Source: an uncultured Planctomycetota bacterium
Lineage (GTDB): Bacteria > Planctomycetota > Planctomycetia > Isosphaerales > Isosphaeraceae
Length of the DNA: 64,000 bases
Assembly: GCA_963823665.1 (NCBI GenBank)
Contig: CAWGMQ010000004.1
Location: 2,784,001 to 2,848,000, forward strand
Direction: 5' to 3'
Shown here: positions 34,228-51,172 of the stretch, in pieces
How positions within the stretch are numbered: position 1 is the stretch's first letter
Layout of the letters: every line of letters starts with the position of its first letter
Translations under genes and position numbers: made by a program
Notes under the pieces: generated by a model
The model's database searches: none
Told to the model about the DNA's origin: nothing
The model's input: only the letters and a program-made list of their open reading frames with translations

Positions 34228-34286
34228 TTGACGGGTTCCTGAAGGACAGACTATAATCTTATTGTAATTGAGACTCAATCTCAATT
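34228..34286 (+). promoter_or_regulatory. Sigma70-type promoter with downstream Fur-like operator
   Basis: TTGACG (34228) -18 bp- TATAAT (34252); perfect inverted repeat AATTGAGA-N5-TCTCAATT at 34266-34286. Confidence 0.8.
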
Positions 34287-34348
34287 GCGATCCGATGTGC
34301 GGACTTTGGGGTTGTGCGTGCATGCGTCTGAAGAAAAAGAGCACGGCG

Positions 34349-36732
34349 ATGGCTCGGAGGCAATATCGGTGCTGTCGGAAGGTTCTGGCGCTTCTGGGCG
34401 TCGCGTTTTTCTGTGTGGGTGCGCGCGAGTCTGAAGGGTCTGATGTATCGGGCGTGATCCGTATGCCGGACATATGTTCGCCGGCTGCGAGCCCGGCGGT
34501 GGTTTATTTGACGCCGGTTGCTCCGAACGGCGCGGGCGTGCGTTCAGAACCGCCGGCGATTCCAGTTGCGGCAAGTGACGCACAAGCTGCTGAACTCGTG
34601 CTCGTGAATCAGCGGGGGCTCCAATTCGTGCCGCGGGTGCAGGCGATCGCGCTGGGACAAACCGTTCGCTTCACGAACCAGGACAGTGAAACGCACAATG
34701 TGCACGTCGTCTCACCCTGGTTCTCGCTGAATCAGGCAATGGCGCCTGGACAGCCTCTGGATTTCAAGCCGACCCATGCGGGTGTGATGAAGCTTGCGTG
34801 CGATATTCATCACCACATGCGCGGATATGTGGTTGTCAGCCCGAGTCCCTGGTTCCGGATCTGTGATCGAGACGGACGGTTTCGACTGGCCGGAGTGCCT
34901 GCGGGGCGTTATCGGCTCACCGTCTGGCATGAGATGGGCGAACCGTTGCGAACCGATATCGTGGTCGGTGATAAGGAAGTTGTGCTAGCGCCGCTGTTAT
35001 TGACATTGCCGGCCGGCATTAGCGGCACGCCGGGCGGGCCCGCGAGCCGAAGCGTCGCGCCGGTGCGGCCCTGGGCCGAGGTTCTCGATCGAATCAGCTT
35101 GAAGCTTGTTGAGAGCCGCGACGCAGCCGTGCATTCCGCGATACGAGGAAGGCGTTGCAGTTGGCCGACGACGCCTACTGGGTCGAGTTTGAGGCATCCG
35201 ACCTCGAAACGGCCGTGCAGAGGTATTTGGGCTTCAGCCGGAAAGGCGAGCTGGAAAGGCAGTTCCGAGCGATCCGAACAGCCGTCCGGCAGGTCGGCGC
35301 GACCAAGCGCCGCGACGCGGCCGAGCTCACGGAACTGTGCGATCGATGGATGGCCAGTCTGGTCGCAGTGACGAAGGAGCTCCATGACAAAGGCGTGACG
35401 GACGGGTCAAAGATCGACGCCGTGAGCGTGGCCGCGCCCGGCTTCGGTGATCCCACGGACCTAGCGCCTGGTGGAGATCCCGAGCACCTTATGCAGGAGC
35501 TGAAGCGCGGTTTTGGGCGAGTTGAGCAGGTCGCCGGCAACGACGGTGCGATGGAGGCGGCCTCGGAGCTAACGACGGTGTACATGACGGATTTCGAGCC
35601 ACTTGAGCGCTATCTTCTGGGTCGCAGGCCGCAGGAGGTTCGTCCGCTCGAGATTGAGTTCAATCAACTCCGCGGCGATGTGTCCGCGGGATTGAAAGGC
35701 GATGCGCTATCGGCCCGCCTCGACCTGCTCTCGGGGGAAGTGGAGCGTCTGGTTACTCACCTCGAATCTCAGCCGGCCGGCCAATTTGGCTCGGCCTTCG
35801 CGGCGTCGTTGATCACGATTGTACGCGAAGGCGTGGAGGTTATCCTGATCGTTGCCATGCTGCTGGCACTGGTCGGCAAGGCGACGAGCGCGGCCTTACT
35901 ACGAGGGTTCGCTGACGGCGGCGGGGCGGCGTTGGCCGAAGGAGCTTCACCTGATCAAGGCGACCTTGCCCGCGCGCTCAACGAGGTGAGGTCGCGTTCG
36001 GTCCGAGCGATCTGGTGGGGGGTTGGAGCGGCCGCCCTGGCGAGCGCCGTCACCGCGGTTGCGCTCAACTTGTTGATCGCAAGCGCAGCTGGCGCGGCCC
36101 GGGAAACGCTTGAGGGAGCCGTGATGTTGGTGGCCGCGGCCGTGCTGTTCTATGTCAGCTACTGGCTCGTTTCACGATTCGAAGCGAAGCGGTGGACAGA
36201 TTTCCTGGCCGAGCGAGCGCGTCGCGGCATTGCGCTGGGGGGGCAGGGCACGCTGGCTCTGACCGCGTTTCTCGCCGTGTATCGCGAAGGGGCCGAGACA
36301 TCCCTTCTGTACCAGGCGCTTCTGGGTAGCGAGGGGCGGACTCGCCTGGGCCTTCTCGGCCTGGCTGCCGGCATTGTCGTGGGCGCAGCCGTTCTGGCGC
36401 TTGTCGCTACGCTCATTCGAGCCACTAGTGTGCGGCTGCCGATTCAGCTCTTCTTCAAGGTTTCGGGCCTATTCCTCTTTGTCCTGGCGATCGTGTTTGC
36501 CGGCAACGGAGTCTTCGAGCTTCAGAATGCAGGCGTCCTGATCACGACGAACCTCACGTGGATGGGCCGGGGCCTGCCGTGGGCCGGCGTTTTCCCCAAT
36601 CTTCAAGTCCTGTCGGTGCAGGGGCTGCTGCTCTTCGGTGCCGTCGCCGCGTGGCTCGTCGTACCAAGGTCGGCGCTGGGACCTGGCGCGAGTAAACCTC
36701 CTGGCATCAAGCTCGCGGCCAAGCGCGGGTGA
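34349..36732 (+). CDS. Cupredoxin-like + helical + FTR1 iron permease fusion (frameshift near 35138)
   Basis: HNVH...CDIHHHM in 5' frame; REGVE and REGAE motifs with TM helices in 3' frame; one added base joins them. Confidence 0.8.
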
Positions 36733-36757
36733 ACAGAATCAGGTGGGGAGGCTCGCA

Positions 36758-37400
36758 GTGGCCCAGCGGTGGATCGGTCCGAGCGTGGTCGCCGTGATCC
36801 TCGCGAGCGTGGCGGGTGTCCTTGCCTTGAACCTGAACTGGAAGGGCTGGGGCGGGGGGCCCAAGTCGTCGAAGAGCCCGCCGGAGCCTGCTCAAAATAC
36901 CGCCGGTGCCGGCCACCGGCCGCCGGCGGGCTTCCGCGAGTATCCGATCGGCGAAGAAGTCGAGAAGAATCAGATCCGGATCGCCGCCGTCTATCTTCCG
37001 CCGGTCGAAATGGAGGGCATGCCAGGGCCGAGCCTCGCCATCACTGATCCACCTCGAGGCTGATATTCATGCGACGGAAGGCAATCGCAATGGCTTCCCC
37101 AAGGATGAATTCGTGCCCTATTTGATCGTGAAGTACGTGATCGAGCCGATGGACGCCTCCGCGAAAGCCGGATCGGCCGGGCCGATCGGAGGCCGGATGA
37201 TGCCCATGATGGCGCGAGACGGGTTGCATTATGGCGCCAGCATCGAAATGCCCCATGCCGGCCACTACAAGCTCACTTATTCGATTGCGATCGAGCTGGG
37301 CCGGCACGCCGACCGAGCGACCGGCGTCGACCCCTGGTGGAAACCGTTCGAAGTCTCGTTCGACTGGGATTATCCCGGCCCTCCGAAGGCCCAGGATTGA
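36758..37400 (+). CDS. p19/Tp34-family periplasmic iron-binding protein (frameshift near 37040)
   Basis: EYPIG, IAAVYLPPVEM, IHLEADIHA, PMMARDGLHYG, GRHAD...GVDPWWKPF. Confidence 0.88.
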
Positions 37401-37569: not shown

Positions 37570-37776
37570 TCAGCCGCAGCAGCACGTCTTGTTGCAACAA
37601 ACCGGGCTACCGCAGCAGTCTCCACTGCATGAGGAACCGCAGCCGCAGGTATCACCGCAGCAACAAGCCTCGGGTGCCTTCACGACGTTCGACTTCTCGA
37701 CGGCGCTTGCAGCAACGCCCAGAACGGTGGCCAGCGCCAGCGCCCCGACCATGCCCAGTACTCGACGACGATTCAT
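37570..37776 (-). CDS. Exported Cys-rich metallothionein-like peptide
   Basis: MNRRR + hydrophobic signal; 13 Cys in the last 31 residues; ggaga RBS. Confidence 0.8.
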   Translation of the reverse strand: MNRRRVLGMVGALALATVLGVAASAVEKSNVVKAPEACCCGDTCGCGSSCSGDCCGSPVCCNKTCCCG

Positions 37777-38003: not shown

Positions 38004-38453
38004 TCAAATCAGAAGCCGGGAATTGCGGAGATAGAGAGGAGATTTCCGCGGAGGGCTGATTGTGGGCGGTGCCGGACTGGTAATTGGCCGGGAAACGCTG
38101 GCGATTTCGATCCAACCTGCTGCTGCGTCACGGCCCGGATCGAGACGGCTTTCGTTAGCACGCTGTTCCCTGGGTTCGGGGGCGGTCGGAGCTTGCGGAC
38201 GACAATGACATCCCGGGAGATCCGGACACACATTCCCGTTCTCGAAGGGAACGTCTTGACCGACCGTCGCCGCTGTCGCGATCCGAGTCGGCGTGGCCGA
38301 TTCGGATGCCTTGCAGCAGCACACTGCCCGACATCCTGCGGCGTCCGACATCGACGTACAGGATGCGAATGCATCGCCGCTCATCAGCGACGCACCCACG
38401 AACGCCGCGAGGGCGATCGCTGAGATACGCAGCTTGCTGAAGGCAATCGACAT
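38004..38453 (-). CDS. Exported Cys/Pro-rich protein, possible regulatory leader
   Basis: Signal peptide (AFA), CRAVCCC, CPDLPGCHC, tail PAPPTISPPRKSPLYLRNSRLLI. Confidence 0.7.
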   Translation of the reverse strand: MSIAFSKLRISAIALAAFVGASLMSGDAFASCTSMSDAAGCRAVCCCKASESATPTRIATAATVGQDVPFENGNVCPDLPGCHCRPQAPTAPEPREQRANESRLDPGRDAAAGWIEIASVSRPITSPAPPTISPPRKSPLYLRNSRLLI

Positions 38454-38651: not shown

Positions 38652-39209
38652 ATGACGGCGAGATTGGTGCTGGGGTTTCTTTTTATCTTAACGGCCGCAG
38701 CCGGCTCCGCCTGGGGATATGCGGATGACGATCCCTGGAAACCCTATGAGTTTCTGATCGGGCAGTGGACAGGAGATGGCGGTGGTGAACCGGGCAAAGG
38801 GTCGGGAGAATTCTCCTTCGCGTGGGACTTGCAAAAGAAGGTGCTGGTGCGAAAGAACCGCGCCGACTTCCCGGCGGCCGGCGGCCGGCCGGCGTTTTCG
38901 CACGAAGACCTCATGGTCATCTACCAAGGCGAGCCCGGCGGGCCTGGCAAGGCGATTTATTTCGATAGTGAAGGCCACGTCATCAATTACGCGGCGAGCG
39001 TATCTGATGACAAGCGGACGCTGACGTTTCTGAGTGAGGCGGCCGCGGCGGTCCCTCGGTTTCGATTGACCTACACGAAGGAAAAGGAGGACACGGTTCA
39101 CATCAAGTTTGAAATCGCACCGCCTGGAAAACCAGATGAGTTCAAGACCTATGTTGAAGGTGGCGCGCGTCGGAAAGATATGCCGAAGCCAGGGGACGCA
39201 GCAAAGTGA
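38652..39209 (+). CDS. Secreted hypothetical beta-rich protein
   Basis: Signal peptide; FLIGQWTG, AIYFDSEGHVINY. Confidence 0.75.
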   Translation: MTARLVLGFLFILTAAAGSAWGYADDDPWKPYEFLIGQWTGDGGGEPGKGSGEFSFAWDLQKKVLVRKNRADFPAAGGRPAFSHEDLMVIYQGEPGGPGKAIYFDSEGHVINYAASVSDDKRTLTFLSEAAAAVPRFRLTYTKEKEDTVHIKFEIAPPGKPDEFKTYVEGGARRKDMPKPGDAAK

Positions 39210-39979
39210 ATCACATCATCAGTTCCGACCGTTCTCATTCGCAGAGTGCGCGCGGGCGTGTTCTGCTGCTGGTGGGTGCCGGCCTTCCGGTTCTTGGAAT
39301 CATCGCGTATGCCGTGCAGATCAGCCTCGGACGACTGACGGTGCCCTGGTACGTGCCGGTGCTGGCATCGCTCGGCGTTGGTTTCGTCGTCATCTCGCTC
39401 TGGACGAGACCGACCTTGTGGCGCGTGCTCGCGCTCATCGCGGTGGCGGTTGTCGCGGCCGGGGAGTGGGGCTTGTTGTTCGCGTTCCGACTGCCGCGGT
39501 ATACCGGGCCAATCGTTGCGGAGGGAGCGTTCCCAGGGTTTGAAACGTCGCGCGCCGACGGCACTGTATTCTCGCGGTCTGATCTCGTGGGCGCTCGAAA
39601 CAACGTGCTCGTCTTCTTCCGCGGACGTTGGTGACCGTTTTGCATGATCGAGCTGGTTCAGCTCGAACGGCACCATGCAGACTTCGAGAAACGCAACGCG
39701 CGCGTGCTGGTGGCCTCGATGGAAGAGCTTGACGATGCGCGGAAAACGCAGGCGCAGTTCCCGCATCTGGTTGTGCTGGCGGACCACAGTCGGAAGCTGT
39801 CCGAGGCGGCCGAGCTTGTTCATCCCCACGCTGGGCCTCTTGGCCGGGACATCGATGTTCCCACCACGATTCTGATTGATCGGCAGGGGACTGTGCGCTG
39901 GGTGTATCGTTCGCCGGCGGTTAATGCTCGGCTTTCGCCGGAGGAAGTTCTGCGAGAGATTGACCGGCGCATGCCCTGA
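39206..39979 (+). CDS. Membrane-anchored AhpC/TSA (redoxin) selenoprotein, Sec at TGA 39632-39634
   Basis: Two track ORFs share a frame; junction reads LVFFRGRW-TGA-PFCMIEL (UxxC); later PTTILIDRQGTVRW. Confidence 0.85.
39635..39670 (+). promoter_or_regulatory. SECIS-like hairpin
   Basis: ccgt...acgg lower stem; tcgagctg/cagctcga upper stem with gtt loop, G at +22 from UGA. Confidence 0.75.

Positions 39980-48942: not shown

Positions 48943-51158
<2,216 letters not shown>

Positions 51159-51172
<14 letters not shown>

Follow-up and report, generated by a model that had tools for sequence, protein, structure and literature searches.

Peroxiredoxin-like (Prx-like) proteins with a UxxC active site, in which the first position is selenocysteine (Sec), have been catalogued since 2008, and the protein described here is a further member of that kind. 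The GOS survey recorded 225 'Prx-like 1' sequences with the pfam00578 domain and a UxxC motif (PMC2398784), Table 1 of a 2026 catalogue includes the 'Prx-like thiol:disulfide oxidoreductase' (PF00578, UxxC/UxxU) as a predicted selenoprotein family (PMC13188914), and a PF00578 UxxC family is likewise among the predicted families listed in PMC9312934. 'Prx-like 1' of the GOS survey is the 'Prx-like thiol:disulfide oxidoreductase' of the 2026 catalogue (PMC2398784; PMC13188914). Viewed by eye and unaligned, the '#Prx-like 1' section of GOS Dataset S1 contains proteins with three hydrophobic segments before FFRAHWUPYC (e.g., JCVI_READ_1092955113646), as well as further full-length proteins of about the size of our query (PMC2398784). 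Because neither 'membrane' nor 'transmembrane' occurs in the main text of the GOS paper, the anchor goes undiscussed there, and because RGRWU has no match in Dataset S1, the planctomycete subfamily itself is not in the GOS list (PMC2398784). Use of Sec by planctomycetes has already been published (PMC4807772). Our literature searches turned up no description of a Prx-like selenoprotein with three helices; the main texts of deep-Sep and BSepDB contain no matches for Prx or membrane terms, and the BSepDB entries and deep-Sep supplements may list the subfamily. Caulobacter PrxL (cd02969) is a periplasmic Prx-like protein that is reduced by ScsB and has no detectable peroxidase activity (PMC3322552).

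We analyzed a 64,000-nucleotide stretch of DNA (hereafter, the window) from an uncultured planctomycete of the order Isosphaerales (contig CAWGMQ010000004.1 of assembly GCA_963823665.1, positions 2,784,001 to 2,848,000). From 39206 to 39979 on its forward strand runs a single frame of 257 codons plus a stop, whose sole internal stop is a TGA at codon 143, within FFRGRW*PFC; this is the first redox position (RGRW-U-PFC, 39632-39634), as a preliminary description of the locus had noticed. Read as Sec, the codon yields U143-P-F-C146, the Sec-first UxxC motif by which members of the PF00578 UxxC Prx-like family are recognized. Also as described earlier, the gene is split by the ORF caller: translation table 11 returns two ORFs, 39206-39634 (142 amino acids) and 39644-39979 (111 amino acids). 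The public protein collection holds the 142-residue fragment as a separate entry (P0003), and the subfamily as a whole is present in databases as 'hypothetical' membrane proteins of 135-165 amino acids ending in FFRGRW, plus a separate C-terminal piece. We predict, with moderate confidence in the combined picture, that one gene encodes a 257-residue selenoprotein in which a three-helix inner-membrane anchor carries a periplasm-facing UxxC domain that would act as a thiol-disulfide oxidoreductase. The features to which we refer are as follows.

38652..39209, + strand: upstream ORF of 185 amino acids with a signal-peptide-like N-terminus and a GTGA overlap; adjacent here, not a conserved partner (ORF calling, homologue loci, Pfam)
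39206..39979, + strand: whole gene, 257 amino acids with TGA as Sec; three predicted transmembrane helices and an AhpC/TSA thioredoxin-fold domain (translation, Pfam, AlphaFold2, full-length homologues)
39260..39316, + strand: predicted transmembrane helix 1, residues 19-37; N-terminus predicted cytoplasmic (hydropathy, AlphaFold2 model, K+R counts)
39350..39406, + strand: predicted transmembrane helix 2, residues 49-67, preceded by a PWYxP motif conserved in the close subfamily (hydropathy, model)
39425..39481, + strand: predicted transmembrane helix 3, residues 74-92; the preceding loop is Arg-rich and predicted cytoplasmic (hydropathy, model, K+R counts)
39527..39901, + strand: AhpC/TSA (PF00578) domain, residues 108-232 (Pfam; Foldseek to BCP, 1-Cys Prx and ResA)
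39632..39634, + strand: in-frame TGA, inferred Sec143, position 1 of U-P-F-C (translation, homologue column)
39641..39643, + strand: Cys146, second position of UxxC, invariant and aligned with the peroxidatic Cys of Prx/BCP (homologue alignments)
39648..39666, + strand: SECIS-like hairpin within the coding sequence, with an 8-bp stem and a GUU loop 21 nt past the UGA (folding, family conservation)
39860..39862, + strand: Pro219, a thioredoxin-type proline (presumed cis) at the place of the catalytic Arg of peroxiredoxins (alignment with 2cx3; 100% in 42 close homologues)

The supposition that this organism decodes Sec is borne out by its genome (G000; 16.46 Mb, 91.9% complete), where selA, selB, selC and selD are all present: profile searches returned selA (503.6 bits), selB (364.1 bits) and selD (381.1 bits), each over its curated cut-off, together with a tRNA-Sec (selC) of anticodon tca (75.2 bits). 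These genes are scattered and do not form one operon (selA at C5 470408, selB at C5 568623, selD at C4 2294119, tRNA-Sec at C10 877840). Among 121 genomes of the window's order, the family profile matched 20, its own included (E <= 1e-30), and a TGA lies within the match in 18 of the 19 others, the remaining match being partial; an even sample across the phylum, with 6 candidates scored per genome, gave matches in 24 of 401 genomes at 1e-25.

Homologues were compared at the codon column in a close and a distant set, a check that the preliminary description had proposed. The close set comprised 70 loci examined by script, the 36 weakest metagenome matches (L107-L142) being left out; 8 loci were without the motif, and once duplicates and two off-frame motif matches had been removed, 55 distinct motif-bearing sequences, the window's own among them, showed TGA in 50 and Cys in 5. 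The distant set, from 23 other genomes of the phylum, divided into 21 TGA and 2 Cys. Wherever a stop occupies the column (71 sequences), it is TGA and never TAA or TAG, and comparison with homologues showed coding conserved on both sides of the TGA in a single frame. A public DNA contig (run X1, 402 bases, 39269-39670) likewise has TGA rather than TGC or TGT, with no differences across the codon, a match that is not independent because the contig may come from the source sample. Among the sequencing runs listed for the sequence, none is of RNA, an absence uninformative about expression. Among 22 carrier genomes, selA exceeds the cut-off in 19, is in pieces in two (G018, G030) and was not found in one that is 74% complete (G009); it is also present in G146, a carrier of the Cys form. 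A quick tree of 91 rows, from which L062, L160, L161, L163 and short fragments were excluded, contains 10 Sec/Cys changes at the column, at least 4 of them forced by well-supported branches, with no direction claimed for them. It is very likely that the UGA of codon 143 is read as Sec and that the gene encodes a selenoprotein. In a few homologues, L030/L161/L163 (G033), L062, L160 and L162, the reading frame is shifted or a further stop lies away from the active-site codon, owing either to assembly error or to decay.

Downstream of the UGA lies the hairpin reported in the preliminary description, with its 8-bp upper stem and G-first loop: positions 39648-39655 pair with 39659-39666, enclosing a GUU loop (39656-39658) that begins 21 nt from the UGA. 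The published bSECIS model prescribes a loop of 3-9 nt with G in one of the first two places, a stem of 4-16 bp, a spacing of 16-37 nt and an MFE <= -7.5 (PMC13188914), and the query hairpin (GUU, 8 bp, 21 nt) conforms to it in our own script of that model, which we used in place of bSECISearch. The single hairpin alone is weak evidence. Its folding energy has a z of -2.24 over 56 nt and of -1.00, -1.05 and +0.59 over three other spans of the same region, and the test is permissive, passing 59 of 120 random 60-mers from the window; the z values are mostly unremarkable, and it is the family comparison that bears the weight. In the same test, all 50 close TGA forms pass, as do 20 of the 21 distant ones (70/71), versus 1 of 5 close and 0 of 2 distant Cys forms (1/7). 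Throughout the close set, the loop begins at nt 20-21 in all but one sequence. Synonymous choice within the hairpin is also restricted, in counts that are not p-values because the sequences are kin and not independent: Glu149 is GAG in 49 of 49 distinct TGA forms as against 130 of 226 (58%) elsewhere in the same genes, and Leu153 is CTC in 49 of 49 as against 31% of 455. The loop codon starts with G in all 49, and hairpin position and synonymous codons are kept in the Sec forms only. Covariation was absent from the first 11 aligned SECIS sequences, in which six of the eight pairs are invariant, and a G-C/C-G swap of the top pair is visible only in the set of 49 (G-C in 35, C-G in 6, open in 8). 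In the mechanism that we propose, SelB-GTP-Sec-tRNA would bind the GUU-loop hairpin 21 nt downstream and Sec would be inserted at codon 143, failed read-through leaving a membrane piece of 142 amino acids.

The soluble part of the protein matches Pfam AhpC-TSA at residues 108-232 with 63.2 bits against a cut-off of 26, Redoxin being matched as well, and PF00578 is matched by 29 of 29 family members (E <= 0.01). Among PDB entries, the best matches were BCP and 1-Cys peroxiredoxins, followed by ResA; in the Foldseek run, which aligned the soluble domain only, identity in the leading matches is about 17-24%. The query stays below the cut-off of every NCBIfam model: SelL-related NF040769 comes nearest (51.8 of 120 bits), and with the Prx models it falls far short. 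When the query is aligned with BCP 2cx3, the Pro, Thr/Ser and Arg positions of peroxiredoxins are occupied by Arg139, Sec143 and Pro219, and Cys146 falls on the peroxidatic Cys, such that the PxxxT/SxxC motif and catalytic Arg by which peroxiredoxins are recognized are both absent. In thioredoxins, the arrangement is a nucleophile first, then a resolving Cys, then a cis-Pro. The triad-less UxxC together with Pro219 amounts to a thioredoxin-type arrangement, and because the Prx triad is missing and the arrangement is thioredoxin-like, we favor thiol-disulfide exchange, with Sec143 as the nucleophile, over peroxide removal as the probable function. The Sec143 selenolate would attack an oxidized cysteine, whether a disulfide or a sulfenic acid, in an envelope protein or a small thiol near the membrane, Cys146 would resolve the mixed bond to give a Se-S ring, and a carrier of the DsbD/CcdA/ScsB type would re-reduce that ring. 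Caulobacter PrxL provides a precedent for such a function, although from another CDD family (PMC3322552). The genome encodes two PF02683 (DsbD_TM) genes; this family exceeds its cut-off in 10 of 14 control genomes and is so widespread that the DsbD link is one of co-occurrence only.

The same selenoprotein, in the same orientation, might instead scavenge peroxides. On the outer face of the inner membrane, its selenolate would react with H2O2 or lipid hydroperoxides, with Cys146 as the resolving residue and the helices holding the protein at its lipid substrate or presenting that substrate to it. We consider this rather unlikely but a fair rival, because a selenolate may not need the triad and because Arg139 and Arg242, which are invariant or nearly so across the wide family and could stabilize the selenolate, are conserved. 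In both sequence and fold, BCP and 1-Cys peroxiredoxins are the solved structures nearest to the query, a three-helix anchor would seem to exceed what tethering needs, and PprX is a known case of peroxides being removed in the periplasm with ScsB feeding the reaction (PMC3322552). The absence of the Pro/Thr/Arg triad speaks against peroxide removal, as do the Cys forms, which are common and would have neither triad nor selenium, and the lack of peroxidase activity in the related triad-less PrxL (PMC3322552).

The three hydrophobic helices that had been noted ahead of the thioredoxin fold are found by two approaches that agree: hydropathy peaks at residues 19-37, 49-67 and 74-92, and an AlphaFold2 model (15-sequence alignment; mean pLDDT 85.9, pTM 0.74) places helices at residues 10-40, 49-67 and 71-93, then the thioredoxin fold. 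Across 42 close homologues, the frameshifted L062 having been dropped, mean K+R counts are 2.26 for the N-terminus, 1.07 for loop 1, 3.31 for loop 2 and 1.05 for the linker after the helices. Inside counts exceed outside counts in every one of the 42 close homologues and in 26 of the 29 from the wide alignment, the other 3, all distant, showing the opposite bias; three hydrophobic peaks likewise appear in 26 of 29 sequences of the wide alignment. Because the N-terminus and loop 2 are positive (inside) and the helices number three, we place the catalytic domain in the periplasm, a prediction from hydropathy and charge counts alone that we hold to be quite likely; the protein would insert N-in, C-out. 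The reverse orientation, with a cytoplasmic catalytic domain drawing on the thioredoxin system at the surface of the inner membrane, would accord with the lack of a signal peptide, with a topology that is itself only predicted and with the existence of anchorless soluble paralogue types (L055), but the positive charges on the N-terminus and loop 2 (2.26 and 3.31 versus 1.07 and 1.05 K+R), consistent in all 42 close homologues, make it improbable.

The membrane part has no conserved Cys among close homologues, and so is presumably not a redox module of the VKOR/DsbB kind, and the N-terminal 142 amino acids match no Pfam family (best Bax1-I, E 0.54). An anchor of this sort had been called unusual, which did not hold: of 488 representatives at E <= 1e-30 against the family profile, 149 from the top 150 were examined for segments, and 65 of these 149 top-scoring proteins place 3-4 hydrophobic segments ahead of the motif, which is CxxC in 63 of the 65 (19 of the 149 have no recognizable motif), while three-segment UxxC proteins occur in the GOS 'Prx-like 1' list. 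Conservation of Gln38, PWYxP, Arg73 and LPxYxGP extends through the close subfamily but not through the wide family. Speculatively, and with a slim chance of being right, the module could be a lipid-facing pocket rather than a mere tether, with UxxC sharing one membrane face with Gln38, the PWYxP loop and the LPxYxGP linker, in an envelope selenoenzyme reducing membrane lipid hydroperoxides or a lipid-borne disulfide. If true, a GPx4-like job would be performed by a Prx-like fold, planctomycete-wide, in an unnamed subfamily cut in two by annotation pipelines.

Least tenable is the reading of the TGA as a genuine stop or as an error of sequencing, leaving either two genes (a 142-amino-acid membrane protein and a 111-amino-acid piece from Met147) or a pseudogene: an ATG 9 nt after the TGA, the 95% conservation of Met147 and the separate listing of the halves in databases would suit it, but a single domain would then be broken within its active-site motif, homologues with Cys are intact, all 71 sequences with a stop at the column have TGA, and the hairpin accompanies TGA forms in a genome with Sec genes, so that this very improbable reading is largely refuted.

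The Sec-containing gene starts at a GTG (39206-39208) that overlaps the stop (39207-39209) of the upstream 185-amino-acid ORF by GTGA. This overlap with the ORF for a secreted protein (38652-39209) is real, as had been described, but a functional tie between the two genes is not supported. Homologues of the upstream gene occur in 7 of 20 related genomes searched, and we rejected it as a partner: in 6 of 6 genomes with both genes the two are unlinked, lying on another contig in 4 and 0.25-1.7 Mb away in 2. Across 62 loci, many of which have flanks of only about 1.5 kb or less, no counterpart of any of 8 window neighbors turned up outside the window's own locus. The Cys-rich ORFs, an M61 peptidase, a PhoPQ-related protein and the iron-uptake genes were likewise rejected as partners, being absent from those loci with their short flanks. 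All-against-all ORF clustering of 55 loci produced a largest shared neighbor cluster spanning 3 loci, and the surroundings of the gene thus give no hint of a substrate or reductant. Of the earlier suggestion that the enzyme could perform envelope thiol chemistry for its Cys-rich neighbors, the envelope role fits the predicted topology, but the part on the Cys-rich proteins finds no support, no tie to a neighbor being conserved in the 62 loci. A promoter scan returned no sigma-70-like sites, and the terminator-like matches do not lie downstream of the selenoprotein gene.

The neighboring genes have features of their own. The secreted-looking 185-amino-acid protein has a faint match to a THAP4-like heme-binding beta-barrel (E 0.036). 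Two small ORFs at 37570-37776 (-) and 38004-38453 (-) have signal-peptide-like starts and many Cys, the one of 68 amino acids ending in a run of CC/CGC motifs, and neither matches a Pfam family at E <= 1. At 34268-37400 (+) is an iron-uptake-like cluster of a cupredoxin-like protein, an FTR1/EfeU permease and a P19-like Fe2+ transport protein, in which ORFs overlap at their ends, suggesting that either the assembly or the genes contain frameshifts. Farther along, at 49052-51172 (-), a long Pro/Ala-rich N-terminus is fused to a SufS-like cysteine desulfurase sequence that is apparently frameshifted and that presumably resembles encapsulin-cargo desulfurases.

Two paralogues occur elsewhere in the same genome. 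L055 (G000:C4:2628942-2632145; TGA locus 1597-1599, -) is a second Prx-like gene, with FFRGHW-TGA-PYC and no membrane helices; it is of the soluble Prx-like 1 type and by eye has a similar GAGCU-loop-AGCUC hairpin. The third paralogue, L052 (G000:C6:1669106-1672657; about 1500-2070, +), starts with a signal-peptide-like N-terminus and carries FYRSADW-TGA-PYC, a motif resembling that of exported GOS Prx-like 1 sequences; it lies about 15 kb from the DsbD_TM gene at C6:1685680. In a Pirellulales bacterium, P0008 (MEX2121249.1) combines the three-helix module with a first domain whose U/CxxC is replaced by SxxC. The start of the domain is then repeated as far as FFRGRW, where a second domain may have been truncated at a UGA. 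P0304 (MEX2121251.1), from the same cluster and with a near-adjacent accession, may be a second copy.

With Sec at codon 143, the annotation of a subfamily currently held as two pieces, for which no NCBIfam model covers the query at cut-off, is corrected. The repeated Sec/Cys switches in the tree offer natural pairs for asking what selenium adds in an oxidizing envelope, and the literature that we examined seems not to discuss either the multi-pass anchor of this class or its outward-facing topology.

Compared with described systems, the query resembles ResA, TlpA, CcmG and ScsD in its TlpA-like fold (Foldseek ResA, E 1.5e-8), its W-C/U-x-x-C motif, a proline at the cis-Pro position, and a predicted membrane anchor with a domain that would face outward. 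Those proteins have a single membrane anchor, whereas the query has three helices and Sec for the first Cys. It scores far below the cut-offs of ResA (19.9 of 170 bits) and DsbE (15.6 of 359 bits), and no cytochrome c maturation or scs genes were seen linked in the homologous loci. Peroxiredoxins (BCP/PrxQ, 1-Cys and Sec-Prx) provide the best sequence and structure matches and align their peroxidatic Cys with Cys146, but their Pro, Thr/Ser and catalytic Arg are replaced by Arg139, Sec143 and Pro219; in the TxxU Sec-Prx, Sec is peroxidatic, whereas that of the query is at the Thr position (PMC13188914). Caulobacter PrxL, likened here by description, is also an exported Prx-like protein without the Prx triad and is kept reduced by the DsbD-class ScsB, but it belongs to cd02969, has a signal peptide instead of three helices, and has no Sec reported (PMC3322552). 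PRX_like2 (cd02970), again matched by description, shares a CxxC-type motif and a Prx-like sequence lacking the triad (PMC3514251), and NF040769 (SelL-related) is the best NCBIfam match of the query and is matched by 29 of 29 family members, although at 51.8 bits against a cut-off of 120 the query is not a member; the three-helix N-terminus lies outside both models. The GOS 'Prx-like 1' family, which is predicted only, has PF00578, UxxC and the FxRxxW-U-PxC motif in common with the query.
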